DNA of 64,000 nt from Eledone cirrhosa (taxonomy: Eukaryota): positions 108,376,001 through 108,440,000 of the forward strand of contig OZ024742.1 in the NCBI GenBank assembly GCA_964016885.1, read 5' to 3'. A program made the position numbers and the translations under genes. Shown piece after piece: positions 4,995-58,280 of this stretch (its first letter is position 1; each line of letters starts with the position of its first letter). The notes beneath the pieces were generated by a model. The model searched no databases. It saw nothing but the letters and a program-made list of their open reading frames with translations, and had not been told where the DNA came from.

Positions 4995-5546
4995 TGTTGA
5001 TAGATAGATAGATGGAGAGAGAGAGAGAGAAACAGAGATGTGGATATTTTAATATAAATATTCAACTTCCCCACTGTGTTTGTTGATTGCTTTTTTTTTT
5101 CTTTTGTACCAACCTATAGAATGATAGGGAAACAGTGCTTATGTGGGTACCTATTTCTATATGTCTATACCTTTCTCTAGCTCTCCCTAATCATCTCTCA
5201 AATTCTGATATACAACTGTTTTGCTTTTGTATTTATTCAGTAAACATAAGCATTTATTTGTCCACCTACCTACTTATACACTTACGCAGTTATCTACCGA
5301 CTTATCTATTGCATATACATACTATCTATCATCTATCTAGCTTGGGATAGACACATGTGCTGAGCTCGCTCGGTAAGTTTCGTTTAAACTTATCTGGAAA
5401 TTGTGAACTGTAAACTTTCATTTTTGTACCATTTTGTAGAGAGACTGCCAGGTCAAATTTTGATCTGGTCAGTCTCTCTTTAGGCGAAATAGTGTTGTAA
5501 AAATGTTATCTTTCGAAAAATTTCGAAAAATCCTATTTTGATAAAA

Positions 5547-7378
5547 ATGGCTGAAGCATCTTCACCAACATTCAAAGGAAGAAATTGGAAGTCATACTCA
5601 CAGCTTCCCCCTGCCACTGTCACAGCAGCAGATGCCAAAGGCAGAGGTCAGCCAGAGGAAGAATTTTCTTCACCTGTTGACCGACAACTTGATGTAGCCA
5701 CAACTATACAAGAAACTGAAAACAACAACAACAACGACAACAACAGCAACAATAAAGACAACAACAACAACACAAACGTCACAAGTATCCACACACCAAA
5801 CGAGAAAGACAACAATAACAAAGATGAAAACAACTCAAACGACGAGAAACAAAACAATACAAACACCAACAACGAAAACAAAATATATTTTGCACAAACG
5901 GCTAAATTATCAGTCACTTATGTGCTTGAAGATATTTCAAAAGCCAAAGAAATGCTGGAAAAAGCCAAAAAATATGTATCTTTTGGCGAAAACGGTTCGT
6001 TTTCTATAAATTCACCTCCAAAACAGGCGGAATTACGAACTGTCGTATTCCGTACAATTTTAAATAAAACCAAAAAACCAGCACAACCATCTCAAGCTGA
6101 AATTCAGTTAGTACTGAAAGAAGCGATGAAAGACATCACTTTCATACAAAAGGATAAACTCTATGGGAGTTTATCCATATTGATGAAAGACGAATTGGCG
6201 GCGAAAAAATACTCTGTGTCGCCAATTCGTTCCACACACTACACCTTCTTCCCCACCTACATGGGTAAAAAAACCCAGAGAATATGGAAACCACCATCAC
6301 CCCAAACATAAACTACTGGTGGTTACTAACCGGTTTCCTCAATTTAGACGAGGACAATCTCATTTCAATAGGGAAGGCATCCGGCGACGCGTTCAGTGGA
6401 ACGAGTATCGAAGTTCTGACACAAATAAGGCCAGAACGTATCGCCCAAATCCCTGAGCGCGTCATGCTGGATGACCGTACCCACCTCAACATTATTGTGG
6501 AGGGTAGGCGTCCCTGCTGTTACCTCTGTGGCAATAGAGGTCACCTGAGTTGCCTGTCCCCAGCTCACACAGAAAAAAACACTGCTACCAACACCAACAC
6601 CACCGCAACAACAACAACAAAAACAACCACAACAACAACAACAAAAACCAACAACACCACCACCACCACCACCACAACAACAACAACAAACACGTGAAAA
6701 AACAACACAGAATACTGTCCCACCCAACCCCTCCCACCCAAAACAAATACAAAAACACACACACCGCAAACACTACCAGAAAACATACCCTCCCACCCAA
6801 CAAGGAAGACGAACCCCTTTTGTCGCAAGACGAAAAAGATCCCTTCCAAACAGTAAAAAGAAAGAAGAGGAGGCGCACCACAGACACACTTGTTAACATT
6901 AACCCTCCCCAAGAGAACACAAACTACATACAAACCACCCCTCCCCGTCACACAACACTAACTGCTACACACAAAAAGACCTTACAATATACAAACATGA
7001 ACACAGACAACAAAGAACTACTGAAAACAATTTCATCAAACCCTTCGGTCCAAACTGAAGGGCCTAACTTTATAACTGCTGTGGGACTACCTCATTTAAA
7101 AATGATTAAAGTCCCAATGAACTTTTATAAAACACTGAAAATAAATTTCACGGAGGACGTACCCCCCCCCCCCCCCCCCCCTGCGCCAAACCAATCAACC
7201 GCGTCCTCCTAAAAAATGTTATCCCCCCACCTCACCCAGACACCCACTCAAGCACAAACGCCCCAACCCACATCACACTGATGCCCCTTCACTTCCACAA
7301 ACCACCACCCCACCCAACAGCCCATCCCCAACCAGCATGGAAATTGAGCGGCCCGCTTCCCGGGACGCAGAGAGGTAA
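5547..7378 (+). pseudogene. LINE ORF1 (gag-like, zinc knuckle), frameshifted
   Basis: Consecutive ORFs 5538-6311, 6284-6697 and 6550-7212. IIVEGRRPCCYLCGNRGH knuckle, FQTVKRKKRR basic motif and (AAC)n low-complexity tracts. Confidence 0.75.
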
Positions 7379-7402
7379 GTGCCTTTTCTCCTTACCACCA
7401 AC

Positions 7403-10400
7403 ATGGCTGTGCTAAGAGTAGGGTGTCTAAATGCGCGTGGCCTGGGCTCATCTTGGAAGCAAGCAAATCTTCTAGATGAGCTCAGGTCACGATCTATAAA
7501 TGTGATGGTCATCTGCGAGGCCCGGATCAGCAGCATGCGACAGCTAGCCCCCACCTTTGATGACTTTGAGATGCACGCATCTCTCTGTCAACCCGGTGGT
7601 GGAGTTGGGGTTGTCGTTCTGCTGCAAAAACATCTGGGTCTTGCCACACAGATAGTTCACTTGGACCCAGGGGGTCGACTGGTGGTGCTGGACCTTGGCA
7701 GTGGTGAAGGTGGATCCTTTAGGCTGGTAGCCGCATATGCCCCTTTTGGGACAGAGCGGCCCGACTTTTTCCAGTGTCTGGAGTCTTTTCTAGGGACGTC
7801 CCGTCCCCTGCTTTTAGTGGGGGACTGGAATGGTATCCTGGATGCACGTTGGGACAATGCAGGGGCATGTCCCGATAGAGAGGGGTGCAACAGCCTCAAG
7901 AGGTTACTCGGCCGATTTGACCTGGCCGATAGATTTCGACTAGATTTTCCGACGGTGCCAACCTGGTCTTGGTCAAATCGCAGCGGATCATCTAGGTCGT
8001 ACCTAGATAGGTTTTTAGTTAGAAATAAGGACAGGGACTTTTTAAGTTGTCCAGAAATGCTCATGGTTGGCTATTCAGACCACAAGTTGGTGACCTGCAT
8101 GGTCAACCTTGATAGAACGCATAGACAGGGCACCCGTTACTGGAAGCTCAACTTGTCCTTGCCAGAAAGTAGAGCTTACAGGGATCGGATTAGTACGTTA
8201 GTTAAGGAACGGTTGACTGGAGCGATCGTCAACAGCAGGTGGTGGGTATCTCTAAAGAGAGAGAATAGAGTAGTCTCGATAGAATTTAGTAAGGTTCTAG
8301 CTGCGGATAGGAATAGGAAGGAAAGGGAGCTAATAGATAGAGTAGAAGAGGCAATTAGAAGCGGCGACGTGGCCAGAGTGCTAGCGTCGAGAACGGCTTT
8401 GAGCCAGTTTTTCGACGCGAAGCACGAAGGCTGCGTTGTCCGAAGTAAAATACGTGCTCTAGGGAACGAGGGGACCAAAGCTGTTAGCTGGGCCCGCGTG
8501 ACAGAGGCCAAGAGTGGAACTAAATCCACCATCCGGTCTTTGCGAGACCAGGATGGACGGGCGATCCTTGAGCCTAAACAGATGCGTGGGCCTTTCAAAG
8601 GCACTTTGCCCGACTGTTCGGGAGGGGCGGGAGCCGGTTGGGGATGTGGACTTCGGTCCATACCTCGACCACCTGCCGCGTCTCTCGGACAGGGAGGCGA
8701 AGTCCTGCGAGGAGCCGATTTCGGTCGCTGAGATAGAGGACGTGCTGAGCCAATGCGGCAAACGCAAATCCCCGGGTCTCGATGGTCTTCCATACGAATT
8801 ATATCTAGCTATGCCGGACTTGTTCCACGATCTCTTCGAGGCGGTCTACTGCAACTGGCAACAGAACGGGAGAATTGCCTGTACTGTGACCAAGGGCGTA
8901 GTCACGCTAGTGAGGAATGACGAGAACAAGGGGGACGAAATAAGTAACTTCAGGCCCATAACTCTGCTAAGTACAGAGTTACAGATTTTGGCCAGGGTGC
9001 TAGCAAAGAGGTTGGCGCTTGTCGTGGGCAACCTGGTGGGAGATGCGCAGACATGTGCTATCCCGTCCAGGCCCATCCATGACAGCCACCACCTCATGCG
9101 ATACATCATAGAGAGGGTTGGGAACGAACCCGGCTTTGGTGGGGCTCTGATCAACTTGGATCAATCTAAGGCTTTCGATAGGGTCGACCATGGTTACCTG
9201 GATGCGGTGCTAGCGGCGGCAGGCTTCGGACCCGTTTTCAGGGGCTGGATCACTACTATGCACAGCAGCGGCATCTGCTCTAGGGCCAAGGTGAACGGCT
9301 ACCTCTCGGAGCCGTTCAAAGTCGCGCGGTCCATCCGACAAGGGTGCCCTCTCTCCTCCCTTCTGTATGTGTTGACTCTCGAGCCACTACTGCGGAAGTT
9401 GTTGCAGGGCATCCCTTTGGAACCGGAATTGCGGAAAAGGGTGTCGGCCTACGCCGATGACATGACAGTAATGGTATCGACAGCCTCCGAAATCGGGGCG
9501 ATCGGCACCTTACTGGAGGAGTACGAAAGGTTCACAGGGGCTAAGCTGAACCGGGACAAGCCGATCGGTTTGCAACTCGGCACGTGGAGGGGCAGACCGA
9601 TGCCCTCCGATGGCATCGTCGGACGCTGGACAGCGGGCCCGGTGAAGTTGCTCGGGGTCTGGTTCGGACCAGACCTCCAGGTGGAGAAGAACTGGGCGGA
9701 GGTTACGAACAGGGTGTTTGCACTGACCCAGAAGTGGGCCAGTTGCAAACTATCCCTGAAAGGTCGGGTGGAGGTGGAAAACACCTATATAGCGTCCGTC
9801 ATCTACTACCGCCTGACCGTAGTGCCTTGCCCAAGAGAAACCCTCGCCAAGATGGAGCGCGCGCTCTTCCAATTCCTTTGGAAGAGGCGGGCTCTCTTGG
9901 TAAGGAGATCCATCTGCTGTCAACACCCTTCGAAAGGAGGGCTGGTGATGCCGTGGCTAATGATGCGTAAACACGCATTAAGGCTACGGCACCTCCAAGT
10001 ATTCCTCACCGGTCAACCGGTGTGGGCCTCGTTTGTGAGACGAACCTTTCCCAGACTCGTCTCACTCACGGAGCTGCAATCCTGGGTCAAGCAAAGACCA
10101 AGAAAACTGGGCGCCTGGCACACTGAGTGTGCCCAGGCGCGCACCGCCCTCTGGCAGGCGGATCCGGTTATCAGTGGAGACTCCACCGCAACGTTCTATA
10201 GAGGGCTGGTACGCAGCAGGTGCGACGACGCCCTCGGAGAAGCCCTAGACATGGAGGAAGACGAACTGGCCAGCCTGTTCGGTAGGAAATTCAGCCCGGG
10301 ACCTATGGACAATTTCCAGAAGTCCCTGGCCTGGCAGTGCTACCGAGGGGCTCTACCCGTTCGAGAAAAGCTCTACAGACACGGGCGCCCGGGTAGGGAC

Positions 10401-10832
10401 CCCGCCAAAAAGATCTGTCCCAGATGCGTGTGCGACGAGGAAACCGTTGCACACGCATTGGTACACTGCTCGGGCGTAGCCGATCTGTGGGGCTATGTCG
10501 AACAACTGCTGTCAAGGGTGGGACCGATCCGGTTGACCACCGAGTCTATTGTAATGATCAAGCCGCCTCCCCCCTTCAAAGATGAAGGAGAGGCGGTGTT
10601 TCTGTGCGTAATAGCCATAGTGAAAGAAGTTGTATGGTGGACGCGTCTGAAAGGACTGAGGTCAGGCACCTTTCTCTCTGGCCAACAACTGGTCCGTTTC
10701 TTCCGATATCATTTCGGAAGAAGGATCAGGATGGAGAGAGAGGTGCTGCACCCCAGTAGTTTTTATGAAAGGTGGGTGAAAGTGGCGAGAATGGCCCGTA
10801 TGAATGGGCCTTCTCTTTACATAAGCCTGTAG
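7403..10832 (+). pseudogene. LINE ORF2: APE endonuclease + reverse transcriptase + C-terminal Cys/His motif, frameshifted near 8590-8630
   Basis: CLNARGL, GDWN, SYLDR and SDH (APE). KSPGLDGLP, LDQSKAFDRV, RQGCPLS and YADD (RT). CPRC..ETVAHALVHC at the C-terminus. Confidence 0.92.
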
Positions 10833-25151: not shown

Positions 25152-25204
<53 letters not shown>

Positions 25205-25254
25205 AATAATGGAGCTGCGGCGCTGCAAATGGGTTACATATGAAAAAGTTTGTC

Positions 25255-25325
25255 CTCATCAGTGGCTTTCCAACCGTCGTAGGCATTTCGTCGCATTAAA
25301 GGCCATATACCTCAGGTTGGTGCGA
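25255..25325 (-). ncRNA. Non-circularly-permuted hammerhead, family 1
   Basis: Reverse complement: tcgca-ccaacc-tg-aggtaT-A|tggcctt-taa-tgcga-c-GAAA-tgcct-acgac-ggttgg-aaagcca-CTGATGA-g. Confidence 0.7.
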
Positions 25326-25513
25326 GCAACGGCTAAAAAAAGTCGTTGGGACACGTAAATAAAGGGGACGCTAGGGTAAACAGACAAAATGGTTTAAGCA
25401 GCAGAAAGTGATGTTGTTTCTTCTTCATCACTTTCTGCTGCTTAAACCATTTTGTCTGTTTACCCTAGCGTCCCCTTTATTTACGTGTCCCAACGACTTT
25501 TTTTAGCCGTTGC

Positions 25514-25584
25514 TCGCACCAACCTGAGGTATATGGCCTTTGATGCGACGAAATGCCTACGACTGTTGGAAGGCCACTGATGAG
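25514..25584 (+). ncRNA. Non-circularly-permuted hammerhead, family 1
   Basis: Same layout. Stem I tggcctt/aaggcca, core CTGATGA at 25577-25583, predicted cut after 25533. Confidence 0.7.
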
Positions 25585-25593
25585 GACAAACCT

Positions 25594-25624
<31 letters not shown>

Positions 25625-25626
<2 letters not shown>

Positions 25627-26311
25627 CGGAAAAAATGAAACGAAATTTCATTTCTCTCTCTTAGTACGGCTGTTACTTAAATATAAGTATGTATACGTAC
25701 ATACATTTATGTATACAGACGTACAGTAGCTTGTATATACATATGTTCGGTGAATGTTCGGTGAATCCATATATATATGTTCGGTGAATCCATACGTACA
25801 TATATATATGTGTGCATGTATGTATATATATATACATACTCCTGTACGTCTGTATACATATATGTATGTACGTATACATACTTATATTTAAGTAACAGCC
25901 GTACTAAGAGTGAGAAATGAAATTTCGTTTCATTTTTTGCGTTTATCGTTTTCGGTACCCCGGCCAATTAACTCTCTCGATATGCAAATTTGGCTGCTCA
26001 GCCGTTAATATGCATAAGGAAAATAAATACTTTCAGACGTTCAATCATCTGGCAGGAAAGTATACGTTGCTGACGATAGCCAATAAGCTTGAAACTAGTA
26101 CAGCGTTCCTTTGTCAGGGTTGAACAAATGAGCAACGACGGTTGCTAGACACTGTACGGCTTAATTCGGGATGTTTGTTTACAAACACACCGAGCATTAT
26201 AATAAATGTTCGGTGAATCCATACGTACATATATATATGTGTGCATGTATGTATATATATATATACATACTACTGTACGTATGTATACATATATGTATGT
26301 ACGTATACATA

Positions 26312-26330
<19 letters not shown>
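25625..26330. mobile_element. (TA)n-associated rearranged repeat family with a canonical hammerhead; also at 27630-28270 and 40600-42490
   Basis: Recurrent blocks gaaacgaaatttcatttctc..ttagtacggctgttacttaaat and gttcggtgaatccatacg, present in both orientations. Confidence 0.7.
26064..26106 (+). ncRNA. Minimal type I hammerhead
   Basis: acgttg-CTGACGA-t-agc(caataa)gct-t-GAAA-ctagt-A|cagcgt, with palindromic stem III ACTAGT. Confidence 0.75.
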
Positions 26331-26350
<20 letters not shown>

Positions 26351-26486
26351 AAATTAAAAAACAAAAACAATAGCAAGGAGTGCAGTTTACGAACAGTGTT
26401 TGGTATTAGGGTCACGCTTGAGAGTGGTGGGTGGTGGATATATATATACATATGAATGAAAAATAGAGCGAGAAACAGAACTATCC

Positions 26487-26558
26487 ATCATCAGTGATCT
26501 TCTGACTATCATCGGTATTTCTTCGCATTAAAGATGAGATACCTCAAAGTCAGTGCGA
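26487..26558 (-). ncRNA. Non-circularly-permuted hammerhead, family 1 (diverged)
   Basis: Extra helix is ctgact/agtcag, triplet AUC, and the 10.1-11.1 pair is T-A. Confidence 0.65.
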
Positions 26559-27385
26559 GCAATAACTAAAATAAGTTATTGGGATAAAAAGAATTGGGTG
26601 GAGAAAGAGAGACATGTAAACAAACAAATTCGAAAGGCGACATAAAGAGAGGAAAATGAGAAAACAAGTCAATGATACATGTGAAGTTAAGTTCTAGCAA
26701 ATCAATGACGAGAAGACGACAGACGCGTCCGAACCCTGCGAAATTTGAGCGAGAAAAGGATTTCACACAGGTCAGACGGGAGGAAGTGAGAGAGGGGGAG
26801 TAGCAGAGAGGGAGTGGGTGAAAGTGTGAGGAAGCCGCCAGCCGACAGAGTGTGACCAGCAGAGGGGGTGAATGAAAGTAAGACGTACAAGGAGAGAGAA
26901 GGGGGATAGAGAAAGAGGATAGCAGTAAGGTGATAGAAACAGACGGGTCGCAACGAGGGGAAAAATATAGGAATGCAAAATGGCGTGCATTTATATTTAA
27001 GGATCTGCTTTTCTTTTTCTTCTTCTTTGATTCGTCAAGGTGACATTATTGAAAAAAAATGAGAGGAACAATTCTTTAAAAAAAAGAGTTTTATAATGTA
27101 TATAAAATATATAAAATATATAAAATATAATCGGTTTCGATGTATCAGTATGGACCATCTTATCAAATGTTGAATATCACAATTGAAAGGAATTAAAAAG
27201 AATAAAAAAGAATAAAAGAATAAAAAAGAATAAAAGTTGAAACGGTCTATTCATGCACACACACACACACATATTTATATATACATATATATACACATAT
27301 ACATACATACACATATATATACATACATACACACATACACACGCATACACATACACACATATATATATATATTTAATATAGATGA

Positions 27386-27434: not shown

Positions 27435-27563
27435 TCCTGATGATTTCTAATGAATGAAACAGTTCTAGTCCTGTAGAATCTCATCTATATTAAAACTGTT
27501 ATACTCTGCTATGTATTGAGTACCTTACTTACTGTGGTTACCTCCGATTCAACCCGGAATAAC

Positions 27564-29281: not shown

Positions 29282-29382
29282 TATATATAATATATATATA
29301 TATATTTATCCTTCTATGTTGTTCACTTGTGCCCCTCGCTTTACGCGATTTACTGGTCCCAATAACTTTTTTTAGTTATTGC

Positions 29383-29453
29383 TCGCACCAACCTGAGGTA
29401 TATGATTTTTAATGCGATGAAATACCAATGATGGTTGGAAAATCACTGACGAA
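29383..29453 (+). ncRNA. Non-circularly-permuted hammerhead, family 1
   Basis: Stem I is tgatttt/aaaatca (compensatory changes), core CTGACGA, and the 10.1-11.1 pair is A-T. Confidence 0.7.
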
Positions 29454-29511
29454 GGACTATTTTTATCATATGTAACCCATGTGCAACCACGCAGTATTCT
29501 TCTTTCTTCTC

Positions 29512-31044: not shown

Positions 31045-34017
31045 CAGGGGTCGGCAACCTTTTGGAGAGAGAGGGCCAAACAGCTATGCAGTGTCATGGA
31101 GGAGGGTCATGTTATTAAATATGTAAATTCATTTTCTGAAGGTTTAAAGCAAAACAAGGAATTTAATATCATTTTATTTTAACAAGGCCCCTTATTTTAC
31201 TGCAGGAATAACAAAAAAAAAGAAGAAAAAACTACAAACACGTTCAACAAAAAATAGCAAATTCCTTATTTTACTGCTGGAATAACAGAAAAACAACTAC
31301 TATCACAATCAACAACAAAAAAAAGCAAATTCCTTGCTACAAACGAAATACAGTTAGAAATGGTAAATGATTTAATGAGACACTTGTTTCTGCTTATTGT
31401 GCAATAACCTCTCCACATCAGATGAAATATTTGTCGATGACAGGAGCAAAACATCATCCAGGTGGTCATCACGCAACCTTGTTCTTAAATGACTTTTAGT
31501 ATATTTCATATATATATTTTGGAAAAAAGTTGTTCACAAGCATATGTACTTACAAATAATGATATCATCAGTTTCGCATTAGTCAAGATGTTTTTATATT
31601 TTCCGCTTGGCAATATATATTTCTTGTAGAAGTCAGCAGTGTATTCGAACTGAAATTTCGATTTCAAAGATTCGTCGCACTGTAAGTCAATTAACTCCAA
31701 CTGATATTCTTCTGCCACTTGCTCCACATCTGTTTCGTAAGGAGTACCAAATAACTTAAATAAAGTTCCATATTGCCGGAAGTCAGCAAAACGAGAGGAA
31801 AATTCGTTTCTCAAATCCTTAATAGAGCTCACAAAGATGCCTGGTATTATATCTCTCTTGTGATATTGGAGACTTGGGAAATGAGAGTAGTTTCCTTTTT
31901 GAAGTTGTGATTCCCACATTCGAAGTTTTCTCTCAAAAGCAGTAATTTGACCAAACATCTCAAATACAACCTTGTTCTTTCCTTGAAGCTCAAGATTCAA
32001 AGTGTTCATGTGGGTCGTGATGTCCACTAAAAAAGCTAACTTGACAACCCACTGTGGATCCTGAAAGTAAGAATTATCTTGGTATTTGCTCTCTAAAAAC
32101 ATAGAAATCTCTTCTCTCAATGCATATACTCGTTCTATCTTTTATCCGCGGCTAAGCCATCGAACATTAAAAAAATATGTAAGGTCGCCATACTCTGCTT
32201 CAATTTGTTTTAGAAATTCTTGAAACTGGCGGTTATTTAGTCCTCTTGACAGTATAAAATTCACTGTCTTCACGACCCCTGCCATGGTGTCCTTAAAATT
32301 CAGTGAATTTGCACATAATGCTTCTCGATGAATAATGCAATGAAATTTGATTAGTTTTTGATTAATACCGATGTGCTTTTGGAGCAATGCAATAGACCCC
32401 CTTTTCTCTCCAACCATTGTTACTCCAGAAAGCTTTGATAAATCCAGATTCATTTCGGTAATCCATTTTATTATGCTTTCCAAAATATCTGCTCCAGTGC
32501 TAGTGTCCTTCATAGGAATCAATTGTACAAATTCTTCCACAATATCAAATGTTGGTGTTACACCCCTCACAAACACTGCAAGTTGACAAGTATCCTTCAT
32601 ATCTGTGGTTTCATCGATAGCAATGGAATAATACTCCAGATTATTTAAAATGCTCTTCAAGCCATTTCTGACATTTGCTGCCAGCTCTTCAATTCGCCTT
32701 GTTCTTGCCGATAAGCTGATCGCAGAAAATAATTCCCTTTTTTCTGGACAAACAACATCTGCTACCTTCAACAATAATTCTTTGAAGAAATCTCCATCAG
32801 TAAAAGGTTTCATCCTTTCTGCAATTAGTTTTGACATCTCGTAGCTAGCACGAGTGTCGCGGTCACTTTCTTCAACTTTTCTAGTGAAAAAGGATGATTG
32901 CTTTGTTACATTATTTCTCAGCCGTGCAACTTCGTTTACTCGTGCTTTTCCAGTAAAACTGTTGTAATGATTATGACGAGTTTCATAGTGCCGTTTAATA
33001 TTTTAAACTTTCTTCACGGCAATGGTTTCTTGACAAATTAAGCAAACACATTTTCCGAAGTGTTCAATAAAAAAATAGCTAAGTGTCCAGCCATCGTTAA
33101 AAGTTCGGCACTCCAAATCCACTTTTCTTTTCTTAGCTTCCATGGGCTTGTTTTTGTTCAAACAAAAAAGATTTATGGAAAGGAAAAATAACAAAAAGTA
33201 TAATAATTAGAATGAAGAAATAAGAAACAATGAAAACAAATGTAAATGCAAATACAGTAATGCGATAAAATATGATAATTGTGAATAAATTATATAAAAC
33301 CAGGTTTCTAACCACGTTGTTAGATCAGGGTTGCCATTTGTTTTTTAAACCACTTTTGGCCTAATTCTAATAATAATAATTCACACAATTTATCACAAAT
33401 AATTAAATAAACGTTATTATCGAATAAAGATACCTACTGTATAGTTGTTATACCACAAGACAAAAAACTCAAATGAAAATACTCTGGGGAGGAGGGAACG
33501 AAGTAATTTTTCCAAGGACAGTTTTACATTGTGCCAGGGGCCACAGGTAAGGTCAGGCAAACGAAGACAACAATAATTCACGAGTGATTTTATTGAATGA
33601 CAATATGGGTATAAAAGCGAGTCATGCGAACCGTAAGGTAGTATACCTTCCATTCGCTGACGAAAATGCATACTTCCAGCCAACATGTGTGTTTGTTAAC
33701 TGGAACAAAAACACATACATGAAATCACAGGAAATAATAATACAGGTGATATAATGCTTGGCGGAAAGGCCAGAAAAAGATGGATAAGAGGAAATAATAA
33801 TAAATGGAAAATATAATAAGGTTACAAAGGTATCTGTAAATATATACGGTATGAGCAGCGATTTGTGATGGGCATCAGGTCGACACAACCTTGAGTGAAC
33901 TACTGTATCTGTATTCGATACTAATTACATAATTAGTGTCCAGTGTAATATGGCGGGCCGGACAAGAATCACTCGAGGGCCGGATGTGGCCCGCGGGCCA
34001 GGGGTTGCCGACCTCTG
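31045..34017 (-). mobile_element. hAT DNA transposon (Buster/Charlie/SPIN-like), both ends intact
   Basis: TIRs CAGGGGTCGGCAACC / GGTTGCCGACCTCTG. 8-bp TSD cactagag (31037-31044) vs ctctagag (34018-34025). Confidence 0.92.
31372..33143 (-). pseudogene. hAT transposase (GTF2IRD2/SPIN-like), frameshifted
   Basis: MEAKKRKVD..CVCLIC..KRHYETRH zinc finger, YSIAIDETTD, HCIIHREAL, VRWLSRG, LAFLVD, STYACEQLFS and QVSH*. Confidence 0.9.
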
Positions 34018-36943: not shown

Positions 36944-38434
36944 ATTATATATAGGGTTTAAAGTTTTGGAACGAGTGTCGGAAGCGGTGTTGGCAAGTTG
37001 CGAACACTTCTGATTTTTTATTAAGGAGATTATGTTTAAAGAAGATGATAGTATGGGTCTCTAGTAGACAGAGGTTACAAAATTTATTAGGTTGTTTGTA
37101 CGATGTTGCACTACCTACCACTTCCCATTTAAGTGTATATATTTTATTTTTAGTTTTTAGATAGTGTATGTAGCTAGATAGTGAAGTGGAGTTGGCTAGA
37201 CTGTGTTTTTTGAAAGAGTGGAGGTGCGAATTGTATCTAGTTGTGAAGCAGTTAGAAGTAGAGCCTATATAGGTTTCAGAAGAGTTGTTAGTTGTGACTG
37301 TACATGAGTATATGATATCCTTGGTTAAGCATTTTTTATCTAAAGGGCAGGTTCTACTTGATCTACAGTTACAATTACTCTGGGTGCTAGTCTGCCGGTT
37401 ACTATGCTGTGTAGAAGTTTGGATGCTTGCTATAGGGTTATGGTTATGTGGGTTGTGGTACGCGGCGTTAATGTTTACACTATTGCTATTACTATTATTT
37501 CCATTGATATTACGGTTATTTGCTATAATGTTACTTTGACTGTTATTTTGAATGTTATTTTGAAGGTTTATCGACTGTTGTGATTTAGTTTGTTGGAAGT
37601 AAGAATTATTTTTTCTTTTATTTGTACTAGCTATGTGGTATGCTAAGTTAGGCGTAGTAGAGTAAGAGATCTTAATAGTGTTTTTGTTTAAAAGGCCGTG
37701 GTACCTGTGGCCGATGGGAAGTGTTTATCTAGTAGTGAGAAGAAAGCCCTAGGTAGGTTGGTGGAGACGTTTAAATTGAAAGGAGGGTTGAAAAATGTAT
37801 TATTTCTTCTTCTATTTCTGCTTTTTATGTCTGGTGATTTGTTTCCTTTACTGTTCCTATGGTCATTTCTGTGGTGCGGGTTACTTTTGTTGTTACAATC
37901 CCTATTAGTGTGTGTGCAGTTGCTATTCCTATTGTTAAATTTTCCCATGGACATGTTGTGTGAAATGATGCTGTAGCTATGTGTTTTTATAGGTAGGAAC
38001 TCTATCTCTGTATTATGGCCTGATCTAGCTAATGCCTGATTATAATACTGAGAATTATTGTTAAATGTGTTTATGTCATAGGATAGACTAGAGATTCTAT
38101 TAGATACTCCCTTAGAGATAGAGTTCAATATAAATTTAGGGTGGTTAGACTTGGTATCTACGTAGATGAGTTTTTCATTAGGTTTGTGGAAAGGTGCATA
38201 CATCATTGAGTCTAGGTAGAGTGTGGCGTCTAGGAAGTTGACGTTTTTGGTGTTTTTGTCCATGGTAATACTAAGGTTAAAGTTTTTGAATGTTTTGTGC
38301 AATAGTTTTCTAGTCCTTTCTATATTGAATTTTTTATAGTCTATAAGTAGAAGTGCATCGTCCCGATACAAACCACCGCTGAGGTACGGAAGTTCCCTGT
38401 GGATTTGGTTAAGTAAGTATAGGCCAACTAAATC

Positions 38435-38436
<2 letters not shown>
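36944..38436 (-). pseudogene. PLE RT (C-terminal half) + GIY-YIG endonuclease, frameshift near 37700
   Basis: DLVGLYLL, GGLYRDDALL, VNFLDATL, SNHP, FFNPPF, CNC..CPLDKKC, DIIYSCTV..TYIGST, CNLCLLE and LNKKSE..CQH. Confidence 0.88.
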
Positions 38437-38497
<61 letters not shown>

Positions 38498-38557
38498 GAA
38501 TATGGGTGAGAAGAATACTGCTGGTTGCACATGGATAACATGTTATAAAATGAGTCC

Positions 38558-38629
38558 CTCATCAGTGATTTACTAAACGATCATGGGTATTTCATCGCAT
38601 TAAAAATCATATACCTCACGTTGCAGCGA
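38558..38629 (-). ncRNA. Non-circularly-permuted hammerhead, family 1 (diverged)
   Basis: Reverse complement: aggtaT-A|tgattt..tgcga-t-GAAA-taccc..aaatca-CTGATGA-g. Confidence 0.6.
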
Positions 38630-38675
38630 TAATAACTAAAATAACTTATTAGGACAATAGAAACGCGTAAAGCGA

Positions 38676-40598: not shown

Positions 40599-41510
40599 TA
40601 TATGTATATACATACATGCACACATATATATATGTACGTATGGATTTACCGAACATTTATTATAATGCTCGGTTTGTTTGTAAACAAACATCCCGAATTA
40701 AGCCGTACAGTGTTTAGCAACCATCGTTGCCCTTTTGTTCAACACTGACAAAGGAACGATGTACTAGTTTCAAGCTTATTAGCTATGGTCAGCACCGTAT
40801 ACCTTCATTTCTCACTCTTAGTACGGCTTTTACTTAAATATAAGTATGTATACGTACATACATATATGTATTCAGACGTACAGTGGTATGTATATATATA
40901 CATACATGCACACATATATATATGTACGTATGGATTTAGCGAACATTTATTATAATGCTCGGTTTGTACAGTAGTATGTATATACATATGTTCGGTGAAT
41001 GTTCGGTGAATCCATATATATATGTTCGGTGAATCCATACGTACATATATATATGTGTGCATGTATGTATATATATATACATACCACTGTACGTCTGAAT
41101 ACATATATGTATGTACGTATACGTACTTATATTTAAGAAACAGCCGTACTAAGAGTGAGAAATGAAATTTCGTTTCATTTTTTTCCATTTATCGTTTTCG
41201 GTGCGCCCGGCCGATTAACTCACTCGATATGCACAATAGGCTGCTCAGCCGTTAATATGCATAAGGAAAGTATATACTTTCAGACTTTCAATCATCTGGC
41301 AGGAAGGAATACGGTGCTGACGATACATATACATACTTATACGTATACATACATATACATACTTATATTTAAGTACGTATATGTATGTATACGTATACGT
41401 ACGTATACATACTTGTATTTAAGTAACAGCCGTACTAAGAGCGAGAAATGAAATTTCGTTTCATTTTGTTCCATTTATATATATATATATATATATGAAA
41501 AAGTGAGTCC

Positions 41511-41581
41511 TTCATCAGTGACCCTCCAACCGTCCTCGGCATTTCATCGCTTTAAGGGCCATATGCCTCAGGTTGGTGCGA
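41511..41581 (-). ncRNA. Non-circularly-permuted hammerhead, family 1
   Basis: Stem III ggcat/atgcc, stem I tggccct/agggtca, and the 10.1-11.1 pair is A-T. Confidence 0.7.
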
Positions 41582-41769
41582 ACAACGGCTAAAAAAAGTC
41601 GTTGGGACACGTAAATAAAGGGGACGCTAGGGTAAACAGACAAAATGGTTTAAGCAGCAGAAAGTGATGTTGTTTCTTCTTCATCACTTTCTGCTGCTTA
41701 AACCATTTTGTCTGTTTACCCTAGCGTCCCCTTTATTTACGTGTCCCAACGACTTTTTTTAGCCGTTGC

Positions 41770-41840
41770 TCGCACCAACCTGAGGTATATGGCCTTTAAT
41801 GCGACGAAATGCCTACGACGGTTGGAAGGCCACTGATGAG
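41770..41840 (+). ncRNA. Non-circularly-permuted hammerhead, family 1 (best-preserved copy)
   Basis: tcgca-ccaacc-tg-aggtaT-A|tggcctt-taa-tgcga-c-GAAA-tgcct-acgac-ggttgg-aaggcca-CTGATGA-g. All four helices are intact, with a predicted cut after 41789. Confidence 0.78.
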
Positions 41841-41849
41841 GACAAACTT

Positions 41850-41889
<40 letters not shown>

Positions 41890-42531
41890 GGAAAAAATGA
41901 AACGAAATTTCATTTCTCTCTCTTAGTACGGCTGTTACTTAAATATAAGTATGTATACGTACATACATTTATGTATACAGACGTACAGTAGTATGTATAT
42001 ACATATGTTCGGTGAATGTTCGGTGAATCCATATATATATGTTCGGTGAATCCATACGTACATATATATATGTGTGCATGTATGTATATATATATACATA
42101 CCACTGTACGTCTGAATACATATATGTATGTACGTATACGTACTTATATTTAAGTAACAGCCGTACTAAGAGTGAGAAATGAAATTTCGTTTCATTTTTT
42201 TCCATTTATCGTTTTCGGTGCGCCCGGCCGATTAACTCACTCGATATGCACAATAGGCTGCTCAGCCGTTAATATGCATAAGGAAAGTATATACTTTCAG
42301 ACTTTCAATCATCTGGCAGGAAGGAATACGGTGCTGACGATACATATACATACTTATACGTATACATACATATACATACTTATATTTAAGTACGTATATG
42401 TATGTATACGTATACGTACGTATACATACTTGTATTTAAGTAACAGCCGTACTAAGAGCGAGAAATGAAATTTCGTTTCATTTTGTTCCATTTATATATA
42501 TATATATATATATATATGAAAAAGTGAGTCC

Positions 42532-42602
42532 TTCATCAGTGACCCTCCAACCGTCCTCGGCATTTCATCGCTTTAAGGGCCATATGCCTCAGGTTGGTGC
42601 GA
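42532..42602 (-). ncRNA. Non-circularly-permuted hammerhead, family 1
   Basis: Identical to 41511-41581. Confidence 0.7.
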
Positions 42603-43287
42603 ACAACGGCTAAAAAAAGTCGTTGGGACACGTAAATAAAGGGGGACCGCTAGAGTAACAACAAAAGGGTTTAAGCAACGGAAAGTGAGTAGAAATAGAC
42701 AAGTCCCAGATCTCTATGAATATAAACTCTGTGAAATCGTGAACAAGAGACGAAAGACCATCGAACCTGGTAGAAATGTGAGCAAGGAAAGAATTTCGCC
42801 CAAGTTTGACGGGGGGGAAAAAGAGAGAGAGAGAGAAAGAAAAAGGAGAGAAGAGGAAGAAGAAGAAGAAGAAGAAGAAGAAGAAGAAGAAGAAAAAGAA
42901 GAAGAAGAAGAAGAAGAAGAAGAAGAAGAAGAAGAAGAGGATAAGGAGTTCTGGTCTATGAATTCGGTAAACGCAAGTTTTGTGAAGTCGCAGACGAAAG
43001 AGAGAGAGAAAAAAATTCCATACCAGCTCGGTCAAGACTGCGCGAGAAAAGAATTACACACAGGTCAAACTTGAAGGAGGAGGAGGAAAGAGGAGGAGGA
43101 GAGGTAGTGACAGAGAATGAGTGAGTGAAAGTTGAGGAGAGGGTAACAGAGAGGGAGACTGCTAGAGTTGGTAAAGATACAAGGAACGAAACAGACGAAG
43201 GCAGCATGGAAAAATTATATGTGTAAATATGATGATAATAATGGAGCTGCGGCGTTGCAAATGGGATACATATGAAAAAGTGAGTCC

Positions 43288-43358
43288 TTCATCAGTGACC
43301 CTCCAACCGTCCTCGGCATTTCATCGCTTTAAGGGCCATATGCCTCAGGTTGGTGCGA
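43288..43358 (-). ncRNA. Non-circularly-permuted hammerhead, family 1
   Basis: Identical to 42532-42602, 756 bp away on the same strand. Confidence 0.7.
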
Positions 43359-43499
43359 ACAACGGCTAAAAAAAGTCGTTGGGACACGTAAATAAAGGGG
43401 GACGCTAGAGTAACAACAAAAGGGTTTAAGCAACGGAAAGTGAGTAGAAATAGACAAGTCCCAGATCTCTATGAATATAAACTCTGTGAAATCGTAAAC

Positions 43500-43775
43500 A
43501 TGGGTTCAGTATGAATCCGGTGACATCATCAGGTATTCGAAATTTAACAAAGGACAATAATCCATGAGGCTGAAAAGGCAACGACAAGAAGGCGGCCACA
43601 CATTCGCCAGTTACTAGTCAGGTCGGCCGCCTTCATGTATATATATATATATGTGTGGCCGCCTTCTTGTCGTTGCCTTTTCAGCCTCATGGATTATTGT
43701 CCTTTGTTAAATTTCGAATACCTGATGATGTCACCGGATTCATACTGAACCCAGTCATTGAAATGCTCATGTATA
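43500..43775. repeat. Inverted repeat (about 100-bp arms) with degenerate hammerhead-like motif
   Basis: 43501-43600 mirrors 43654-43754. Motif reads atac-CTGATGA-tg..GAAA-tgctcat-gtat, with an unclear cleavage triplet. Confidence 0.6.
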
Positions 43776-46562: not shown

Positions 46563-47020
46563 TAAAGAACTAGAAATAGAAGTTAGGAATATCCATCGTC
46601 AGTTGTCTACTAGGCATCATAGGTATTTCTTCGCATTACAGACAATATACCTCCGTCTAGGGCGATACAATAACTAAAATAAGTTATTGGGATAAAAAGA
46701 GTTGGGTGGAGAAAGCGAAAGACATGTAAACAGACACGAATGGTGGGGCAACGTAATGAGAGGAAAAAATGAAAAAAATCAAGTCAATAATTCATTCCGA
46801 ACATAAGAAAAGGCGAATATTGACGAGGAGATAAAGATACATATTAGGCGCACGGATGTGAGCGAGGAAAAGGATCGCGTACGGTGTGGGATCCCAATAA
46901 CTTATTTTAGCTATTGTATCGCCCTAGCTGGAGGTATATTGTCTGTAATGCGAAGAAATACCTATGATGGCTAGTAGACAACTGATGACGGATATTCCTA
47001 ACTTCTATTTCTAGTTCTTC
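46563..47020. repeat. Fold-back element with two permuted hammerheads (46595-46665 on -, 46919-46989 on +)
   Basis: Arms about 46563-46693 and 46891-47020. Stem I ttgtct/agacaa and extra helix ctagc/gctag. Confidence 0.8.
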
Positions 47021-52354: not shown

Positions 52355-53050
52355 AATGAAGAATTAGAAATAGAAGCCAGGACTATCCATCATCAGTGGT
52401 CTACTAGCCATCATAGGTATTTCTTCGCATTAAAGACCCGATACCTCAGGCTAGCGCGAACAATAACTAAAATAAGTTATTGGGATAAAAAGAATTGGGT
52501 GGAAAAAGAGAGACAGGTAAACAAACACGAATGGTGAAGCAACGTAAAGAAAGGAAAAAAATGAGAAAATCAAGTCAATGATTCATTTGAACATAAGAAT
52601 TTGCGAATATTGACGAGAAGACGAAAGACACATCTTAACCGTGCGAAAGTAAGCGAGGAAAGAATTTCGCACGGTGTGGGACGATGGAGGAAGTGAGAGA
52701 GGGTGAGTAGCAGAGAGTGAGTGAGTGAAAGTGTGAGGAAGAGGCTAGCCGAGAGAGGATGACTAGCAGAGGGGGTGAATGAAAGTAAGAGGGAGAAGGA
52801 GAGAGAAGGGGGAGAGAGAAAGAGGAAAGCAGTAAGGGAAGAGAAAAAGACAAGTCAGAGCGAAGGTGAAAGCATATAGGAATGAAAAACTCCACCCAAT
52901 TCTTTTTATCCCAATAACTTATTTTAGTTATTGTTCGCGCTAGCCTGAGGTATCTGGTCTTTAATGCGAGGAAATACCTATGATGGCTAGTAGACCACTG
53001 ATGATGGATAGTCCTGGGTTCTATTTCTAATTCTGCATTTTAATTTGTAT
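52355..53050. repeat. Fold-back element with two permuted hammerheads (52389-52459 on -, 52935-53005 on +)
   Basis: Arms about 52355-52503 and 52891-53050. Stem I tggtct/agacca, extra helix ctagcc/ggctag, triplet AUC. Confidence 0.8.
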
Positions 53051-57747: not shown

Positions 57748-58132
57748 ATATATATATATAGACCCCCAGTAGACAACTGATGAGGAAAACTCCTCCGCCC
57801 CCGTTCTAGCTTTCTTCGTATTCCCACTACATTTTAAGTTATATATATATATAAGTTTATCCCGGGTTCAATCGGGGGTAACCACAGTAAGTAAGGTACT
57901 CAATACATAGCAGAGTATAAATATTTAATATAGACATTTCTCCCGAATGAAACTGTTCTATCCGATAGAAGCCATTTCTATATTAAATATTTATACTCTA
58001 CTATGTATTGAGTACCTTACTTAGTGTGGTTTCCCCCGATTGAACCCAGGATAAACTTATATATATATATATATAACTTAAAATGTAGTGGGAATACGAA
58101 GAAAGCAAGACCGGGGAGGGGGGGGGGGGTTC

Positions 58133-58202
58133 TTCATCAGTGGTCTACTGGGGGTCTCGGATATTTCTACGCTTTAAAGACAATATATCTCGTACAGGGC
58201 GT
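58133..58202 (-). ncRNA. Non-circularly-permuted hammerhead, divergent family 1 member (partial mirror 57761-57784)
   Basis: Stem III is gatat/atatc and the pseudoknot helix is acgc/gcgt. Both are compensatory changes relative to other copies. Confidence 0.6.
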
Positions 58203-58280
58203 CAATAACTGGATAAGTTATTGGTAACCCGGGTTAAACTTATCTTTTAGCACTTTACTGTGCCCTCTTAACCATCATGT

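Follow-up and report, generated by a model that had tools for sequence, protein, structure and literature searches.

The 64,000-nt stretch of the Eledone cirrhosa genome analysed here (contig OZ024742.1, positions 108,376,001 to 108,440,000; hereafter the window) contains a repeated motif with the conserved core of a hammerhead ribozyme. Hammerheads of types I, II and III are circular permutations of the order NUH, CUGAUGA, GAAA. The focal locus does not conform to this circular order, as its core runs cleavage site, GAAA, CUGAUGA. The locus thus raises the question of whether such a motif can be a self-cleaving ribozyme, to which class it would belong, and what kind of element has spread it.

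Architecture of the predicted ribozyme

The initial annotation described the motif at 41770-41840, and its segments are all present there. The core in non-circular order is likewise borne out by the window sequence. The ribozyme nevertheless starts about 30 nt further 5', at 41742, two elements (helix P0 and hairpin H) having been overlooked. The span of 41765-41850 proposed earlier for transcription leaves out the 5' strand of P0 and the greater part of hairpin H. Read 5' to 3' within 41742-41844, the strands follow in the order P0a-H-D-B-III-site-I-D'-GAAA-III'-B'-I'-CUGAUGA-P0b, with these parts:

41742-41844, + strand: whole predicted ribozyme, about 103 nt (from the window sequence, with pairs counted on 22 representatives)
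41742-41746, + strand: 5' strand of P0 (P0a), partner P0b at 41840-41844
41747-41768, + strand: hairpin H (7 bp; the focal family has one A.C mismatch)
41770-41774, + strand: 5' strand of helix D, partner D' at 41800-41804
41775-41780, + strand: 5' strand of helix B, partner B' at 41820-41825
41783-41789, + strand: stem III strand and cut-site triplet (U16.1 is 41788, H17 is A41789), partner strand at 41809-41814
41790-41796, + strand: stem I strand 3' of the cut, partner I' at 41826-41832
41805-41809, + strand: N11.1 and core G12-A13-A14-A15.1 (GAAA at 41806-41809)
41833-41839, + strand: core C3-U4-G5-A6-N7-G8-A9 (CUGAUGA), followed directly by P0b at 41840-41844

A 3-nt linker (41797-41799) lies directly 3' of the stem I strand, and 5 nt separate III' from B' in the focal ribozyme. 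Stems I and III both abut the core and the cut site. In the window sequence, the cut is predicted 3' of A41789, within an AUA triplet, and the site named in the initial annotation stands as a predicted one.

Conservation, covariation and folding

Pairing was assessed on 22 representatives chosen by hand out of 27 clusters of 97 unique copies. Overall, 87.5% of cells are paired and 22 of 37 pairs have changed on both sides. None of 500 shuffles matched the observed pairing, and controls with a slid register were 29-45% paired. Hairpin H is paired in 95.5% of cells, with 4 of its 7 pairs changed on both sides. The corresponding values are 89% and 6 of 7 pairs for stem I, 87% and 5 of 6 for helix B, and 86% and 2 of 6 for stem III. 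The first pair of helix D is U-A in 17 representatives versus A-U in four. The innermost pair of P0 is C-G in all 22, and its fourth pair is G-C in 13, A-U in five and U-A in two. Helices D, B, I and III, already proposed in the initial annotation, are supported by these counts.

Mapped on a tree, the changes comprise 20 compensatory events on 17 of 33 pairs. In a test on 29 pairs without any pairing requirement, partners changed on the same branch 19 times, versus 2.5 ± 1.6 times for re-paired columns (0 of 20,000 reached the observed value). The helices covary at the level of the structure, but an R-scape-like test on the 97 copies found no individually significant pair (best E about 0.5). 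The covariation set holds few independent families.

Hammerhead chemistry predicts an intact core, a variable N7 and an H17 that is never G. The full core is intact in 91 of the 97 unique copies, a count that is partly circular because many copies were fetched by similarity or core patterns. G12 and A13 are each changed in one copy, and A14 and A15.1 in none. N7 varies among copies. At H17, 70 copies have A, 26 have C, one has a gap and none has G. The rest of the ribozyme is conserved in modest excess over the rest of the unit (0.72 vs 0.66), in a set selected on the core.

Nested folding of five copies returned H, B and III in four of them and P0 in three to four; a nested minimum-energy model cannot represent the crossing helices D and I. 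The nested minimum-energy fold of the focal copy pairs the 3' strand of H with B' instead.

The one-base-pair stem II of the initial annotation may hold, but only for families with a spare nucleotide after A9. Position 10.1-11.1 could pair in 15 of the 22 representatives, with five pair types. It does not hold for the focal family and that of the copy at 58133, in which P0b comes directly after A9 and no 10.1-11.1 pair is free. Because P0 directly follows A9 in these two families, helix D is their likely functional stem II. We infer that stem II takes the form of a four-way junction in which core, D, H and P0 meet, with at most one spare nucleotide per side. In the corresponding geometry, D would be stacked under the core and B would tie stem I to stem II.

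Relationship to known hammerhead classes

The order site-GAAA-CUGAUGA has been named type SGC (Eckert et al. 2023, PMC10085705), and the strand order is in this respect not the novelty that the initial annotation had considered. Its suggestion of a novel occurrence has fared better, as SGC or CSG hammerheads in animal genomes were not found in the literature searched, with subscription journals outside the search. The accessible parts of PMC13725137 and PMC10162972 hold nothing on these types in animal genomes. The available text of PMC10085705 reports 583 SGC and 2 CSG sequences from metatranscriptomes, and neither type in genomes of known organisms. The SGC ribozymes described there cleave in vitro at 0.007-0.19 per min. 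The topology class is already known; what appears to be new is the four-way-junction opening and the occurrence in an animal genome.

Like SGC (HRIMA-1 and an SGC variant) and CSG ribozymes as described in PMC10085705, the motif has the full hammerhead core and a helix linking the strand on the 5' side of stem I' to the extension of stem II. With SGC it also shares the block order S, G, C and the 3-nt linker between stem I and the stem II strand preceding GAAA. By its connectivity, helix B would be the equivalent of the stem I-II interaction helix of the published SGC ribozymes. In the latter, the stem II strand and the interaction strand lie 3' of CUGAUGA, whereas D and B lie 5' of the cut site here. 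Unlike in the published SGC form, the RNA leaves via P0, and there is the extra hairpin H. Judged by their strand connections, both forms are openings of one putative circle, II-B-III-site-I-II'-GAAA-III'-B'-I'-CUGAUGA, here opened right after CUGAUGA. In the published block C (PMC10085705) nothing interrupts the sequence: CUGAUGA leads into the stem II strand, with at least 2 more bp, and this into the interaction strand. The published SGC descriptor, whose block rule disallows an opening directly after CUGAUGA, was re-implemented and matched none of the 97 copies and nothing in the window.

The type I and minimal hammerheads in the pseudo-LTRs of canonical Penelope-like elements (PLEs), the Hydra clade included, have the same core and occupy the corresponding position towards the 3' end of a Penelope-type transcript (PMC4209133, PMC8557442). 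They follow the circular order C, G, S around a three-way junction and are often dimer-dependent, whereas the motif here has a full stem III and is predicted to work as a monomer. The accessible part of PMC4209133 covers type I hammerhead variants.

Twister and pistol were considered as identities of the motif and dropped, since hammerhead words and helices suffice and there was no such Rfam match. A canonical hammerhead formed from two tandem units would involve the same strand pairings and hence is not a separate model. On the strength of core, helices and strand order, the motif is a putative self-cleaving hammerhead of the non-circular (SGC/CSG) class.

Copies in the window and in the genome

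All 14 copies listed in the initial annotation were recovered on the strands given there by a relaxed sequence pattern, a profile search and a structure descriptor. The descriptor, limited to the core words plus the four helices III, I, D and B, found exactly these 14 in the window, and one match in 3.83 Mb of shuffled window sequence, both strands considered. Their arrangement is as follows:

25186-25604, both strands: inverted pair of the focal family, ribozymes 25238-25358 (-) and 25481-25601 (+)
26472-26589, - strand: ribozyme copy of another family (relaxed pattern and profile search)
29351-29470, + strand: ribozyme copy of another family (relaxed pattern and profile search)
38542-38659, - strand: ribozyme copy in (TA)n, adjoining, not within, a truncated Hydra-clade PLE
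41490-41669, - strand: inverted partner belonging to a sister family and placed head-to-head relative to the focal copy; its ribozyme spans 41493-41614
41670-41860, + strand: 5'-truncated retrozyme-like copy bearing the focal ribozyme and ending in (TA)n, 93-99% identical to the 626-nt unit of locus L021
42511-43499, - strand: head-to-tail pair of units, ribozymes 42514-42635 and 43270-43391, spaced 756 nt
46581-47004, both strands: inverted pair, ribozymes 46581-46698 (-) and 46888-47004 (+)
52374-53018, both strands: inverted pair, ribozymes 52374-52491 (-) and 52904-53018 (+)
58126-58230, - strand: ribozyme copy of the most diverged abundant family, without the 10.1-11.1 pair

The two arms of the inverted pair at 41490-41860 have a common 5' part and ribozymes from two different sister families, an arrangement pointing to template switching within a single insertion. 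Against a background of only three profile matches in 40 evenly spaced 10-kb samples of the genome, the window is a hot spot.

In the 3.0-Gb genome, the core pattern has 7,659 + 7,582 = 15,241 exact matches, and its reversed control has 0 + 0. A 121-nt query returned 1,573 first-look candidates, of which 40 were scored and all were 100% identical. The focal family comprises at least 40 dispersed copies identical over these 121 nt. A second pattern, in the style of the Naiad motifs described below, gave 106 further genome matches versus two in controls. These matches represent four older non-coding families (L167-L176) with the same fold and other helix sequences; helix D, for instance, has 6-7 bp of different sequence in the older families L174 and L176. 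Among ten old-family loci, stem III has 4-9 bp in all ten, stem I has 5-6 of 6 pairs in eight, and five pass the full structure descriptor. Metagenome matches to the core words served as a negative control, and none of 73 passed the descriptor.

The expectation that standard models would miss the motif is confirmed: Rfam has no match at its gathering threshold in the window, and across 41400-43500 no hammerhead family reaches E<=10. Two sequencing runs of one sample, of a kind not stated, cover the motif and have no bearing on RNA.

Carrier units and insertion footprints

The units that carry the ribozyme measure 502-756 nt (23 units across families), and the families are about 55-60% alike. 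The L021 unit has 626 nt, 45% GC and a longest ATG frame of 63 aa. No ORF with an N-terminal GIY-YIG and a C-terminal RT domain was found upstream at ten old-family loci, and a coding element upstream of the old families was rejected on these ten loci.

Copies are 5'-truncated and sited in (TA)n. A set of 30 focal-family loci was chosen for an intact motif, which makes core conservation within it fully circular. A same-strand neighbour lies 620-630 nt away at eight of the 30, and eight have an inverted neighbour. The 3' end falls just past the ribozyme at eight loci and has a tail about 40-50 nt longer at 16; at the other six the sequence runs on towards the next unit. In all 30 insertions, selected as they are for an intact motif, the cut site is intact and the 3' end lies downstream of it.

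According to PMC8557442 and PMC11167929, insertions of Penelope-like elements, Naiads among them, are recognised by (TA)n targets, 5' truncation, inverted copies and an optional 3' tail. The copies here are like them in (TA)n, 5' truncation, inverted copies and 3' tail. Like the metazoan non-LTR retrozymes described by Cervera and de la Pena 2020 (PMC7229834) and in the preprint of Li et al. 2026 (10.64898/2026.07.22.740005), the units are non-coding and head-to-tail with one ribozyme each, have a GC content below 50%, occur as dispersed monomers and short multimers, and are linked to Penelope-like elements. Their length of 502-756 nt is above the 150-450 bp of the 2020 account (PMC7229834) and inside the 51-972 bp of the other (10.64898/2026.07.22.740005). 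Both sources define non-LTR retrozymes by type I hammerheads, whereas the hammerhead here is non-circular. In their genomic sequence, the ribozyme carriers are retrozyme-like non-coding repeats with Penelope-type footprints. Such head-to-tail non-coding units agree with the placement of the motif in an animal mobile element by the initial annotation.

Penelope-like elements as carriers and helpers

One ribozyme copy in the window, that at 38558, lies beside RT and GIY-YIG frames of the following element:

36945-38542, - strand: truncated Hydra-clade PLE with RT and GIY-YIG frames and RWR, DKT and CxCX5C motifs

This neighbourhood prompted the consideration of the Hydra-clade PLE as the carrier, which was rejected because intact elements lack the motif. 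Intact ORFs of 829-830 aa were verified at 11 loci (L061-L071), and the motif is absent from the flanks of all 11 (500 nt upstream, 700 nt downstream). It occurs at two of 16 Hydra-clade loci, in each case in opposite orientation to the ORF and separated from it by more than 2 kb. In the Hydra-clade family the 3' UTR exceeds 1.5 kb and many copies share 92-98% protein identity, and the family was apparently active until recently. At L061-L071, a minimal type I hammerhead was seen by eye about 290 nt upstream of the ORF start. It has a U4C core change (CCGAAGA) and, also by eye, a palindromic stem III.

Because Pfam gave no RT family for the Hydra-clade or Naiad-type proteins, both clade names rest on motifs. 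The word YWIPKLHK was also used in the naming. The motifs RWR, DKT and CxCX5C were read against the available text of PMC8557442.

Naiads, another group of Penelope-like elements, are described in PMC8557442 (Craig et al. 2021) as lacking canonical hammerheads. There, the absence is treated as a hallmark of Naiads, and as hinting that hammerheads might be mere parasites of PLEs. The same source flags 'HHR_core' and 'HHR_half_core' words, with eight half cores in which GAAA lies 35-50 nt away on either side. For 53 of the 54 Naiad consensi published there, the final 230-300 nt were read by eye, as were seven further Naiad passages; names were assigned by file order. By this reading, 16 of the 54 consensi have non-circular hammerheads: seven in the focal form, three of other SGC form and six of type CSG. 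The focal architecture, with other helix sequences, occurs in Naiads Amil, Aacu, Anas, 2_Movir, Obim, Ovul and Esco, whose hosts are coral, jellyfish, octopus and squid. Three coral and two octopus consensi among the seven are near-duplicates, and helix D is imperfect in Esco. In the coral Naiads, CUGAUGA runs straight into P0. The other SGC forms, again by eye, are those of the ctenophore Naiad Bfor, with a 2-bp stem I, and of the spider Naiads Ptep and Smim, with stems III and I of 7-11 bp. In the nematode Naiads 1-3_Nbra, Hcon, Hpol and Asuum, a clear type CSG hammerhead including a B helix was read by eye; of this permutation just two sequences have been published (PMC10085705). Four ostracod consensi have GAAA before CUGACGA and no site resolvable by eye, and the remaining consensi show no such motif in the stretch displayed. 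Twister-like words were seen by eye at the 3' end of Naiad_Mley, Naiad-1_Movir and the bivalve and hemichordate Naiads (PMC8557442, File S5, as far as available).

Naiad-type RT persists in the Eledone genome as remnants only, with 89 matches and a longest open frame of 233 aa when one lineage is used as the query. One example is:

C3:104590300-104596500: decayed Naiad-type RT (L177), with about 88 further remnants in the genome

Patterns specific to Naiad_Obim have no match in this genome. Nine remnant loci have no profile match and no intact motif, and five of six aligned remnants have core-like words, too decayed for helices to be recognised, at one aligned position. The units here appear to resemble Naiads in their fold, as read by eye at the 3' end of seven of the 54 consensi of PMC8557442, and are unlike them in being non-coding, without a GIY-YIG and RT ORF. 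The shared fold makes the 3' end of Naiads the probable source of the units, and by these sequence readings the motif appears to be the ribozyme that Naiads were thought to lack. Given that the Naiads found in this genome are dead and that the focal family is present in many identical, dispersed copies, the (TA)n-targeting Hydra-clade element with its intact ORFs would be the best candidate for a present helper. An undetected live Naiad is the alternative.

Proposed function and alternative explanations

The motif probably cleaves after A41789 and so would process multimeric transcripts into unit-length RNAs. Read-through of tandem units would yield a multimeric RNA, from which the cut after A41789 would release unit-length RNA. 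Some 20 bp of P0, D, B and III would hold the upstream product, keeping both ends together and making re-ligation to a circle plausible. A Penelope-type RT/endonuclease may then prime at genomic (TA)n, starting a short way 3' of the ribozyme, with either the circle or an uncut multimer as template. The expected outcome would be truncation at the 5' end, inversion and tandem arrangement of copies, all of them retaining the cut site intact.

It is unlikely, but deserves consideration, that the fold is of hammerhead origin and serves mainly as a 3' recognition or priming signal, cleavage being slow, protein-assisted or dispensable and the template uncut. The 30 focal-family insertions, all with an intact cut site and a downstream 3' end (and all selected for an intact motif), are compatible with such a signal, although a re-ligated circle also predicts intact sites. 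The slow rates of published SGC ribozymes (0.007-0.19 per min, PMC10085705, available text) point the same way, as does the hammerhead of an Anolis PLE, which needed protein to cleave and was dispensable for insertion in vitro (PMC11167929, accessible part). Pure binding, however, need not keep all catalytic nucleotides across families that are only about 55-60% alike, or across Naiads of several phyla, and the twister-like motifs read by eye in the same slot of other Naiads point to selection for cleavage and not for a single shape. Somewhat more improbable is a situation in which only some families are active and the focal and 58133 families are inactive, having spread as passengers or as DNA tandem repeats. 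The absence of a free 10.1-11.1 pair in these two families, the alternative nested fold of the focal copy and the small number of frog retrozymes that cleave in vitro (eight of nine dimers stayed uncleaved, according to the available part of 10.64898/2026.07.22.740005) would fit such inactivity. Against it stand the at least 40 identical dispersed copies of the focal family with Penelope-type ends, from which recent RNA-mediated movement may be deduced. The coral Naiads, in which CUGAUGA by eye also runs straight into P0, suggest that this junction form is old.

The apparent structure might also be no more than the common descent of repeat copies combined with helices fitted by hand, given that no pair is individually significant and that the structure was derived from the same sequences. 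This explanation is barely credible beside the branch co-change test, which found 19 events versus 2.5 ± 1.6 without requiring pairing. In the old families and in the independently curated Naiad consensi the helices persist despite different sequences, and none of the 73 chance core matches has them.

A broader joint reading is offered tentatively, its odds being somewhat short of even. It holds that non-circular hammerheads are the standard 3'-end ribozyme of Naiads in at least five animal phyla and exist in three openings (CSG, SGC with a 3' stem II, and the four-way-junction form). They would have seeded a sizeable animal retrozyme family whose clamped ends re-ligate to circles and which, after the death of their Naiad parent, would still be moved by an unrelated Hydra-clade enzyme.

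Implications

Non-circular hammerheads, previously described mainly from viroid-like RNAs, would move from a few hundred metatranscriptome sequences into animal genomes, one of which holds about 15,000 copies overlooked by standard models. Surveys of ribozymes or retrozymes that rely on type I descriptors would be undercounts. If Naiads carry either non-circular hammerheads or twisters at this one position, self-cleavage would look like a requirement conserved in these elements, and the puzzle of Naiads without canonical hammerheads, posed in PMC8557442, would have a testable answer. The four-way-junction form breaks the assumption, found in the accessible part of PMC10085705, that CUGANGA is inseparable from its stem II strand. 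Natural variants with 0 or 1 spare junction nucleotide per side are ready-made for structure-function work.

Other features of the window

Type I hammerhead-like motifs of other repeat families occur in the same (TA)n islands at 26070 (+), 27894 (-) and 57185 (-), where stem I has 4-5 of 5 pairs, and further ones at 27437 (+), 27429 (-), 28623 (+) and 58285 (+). Two larger elements were tentatively named from their motifs. The frameshift-broken frames for ORF1, endonuclease and RT at 5493-10832 (+) presumably belong to a LINE-like element, and the broken frames at 31506-33002 (-) are taken to resemble a hAT-type transposase. A palindromic TA-rich repeat flanks ribozyme copies at 25600-26350, 40800-41490 and 41860-42510 and has been duplicated together with them.
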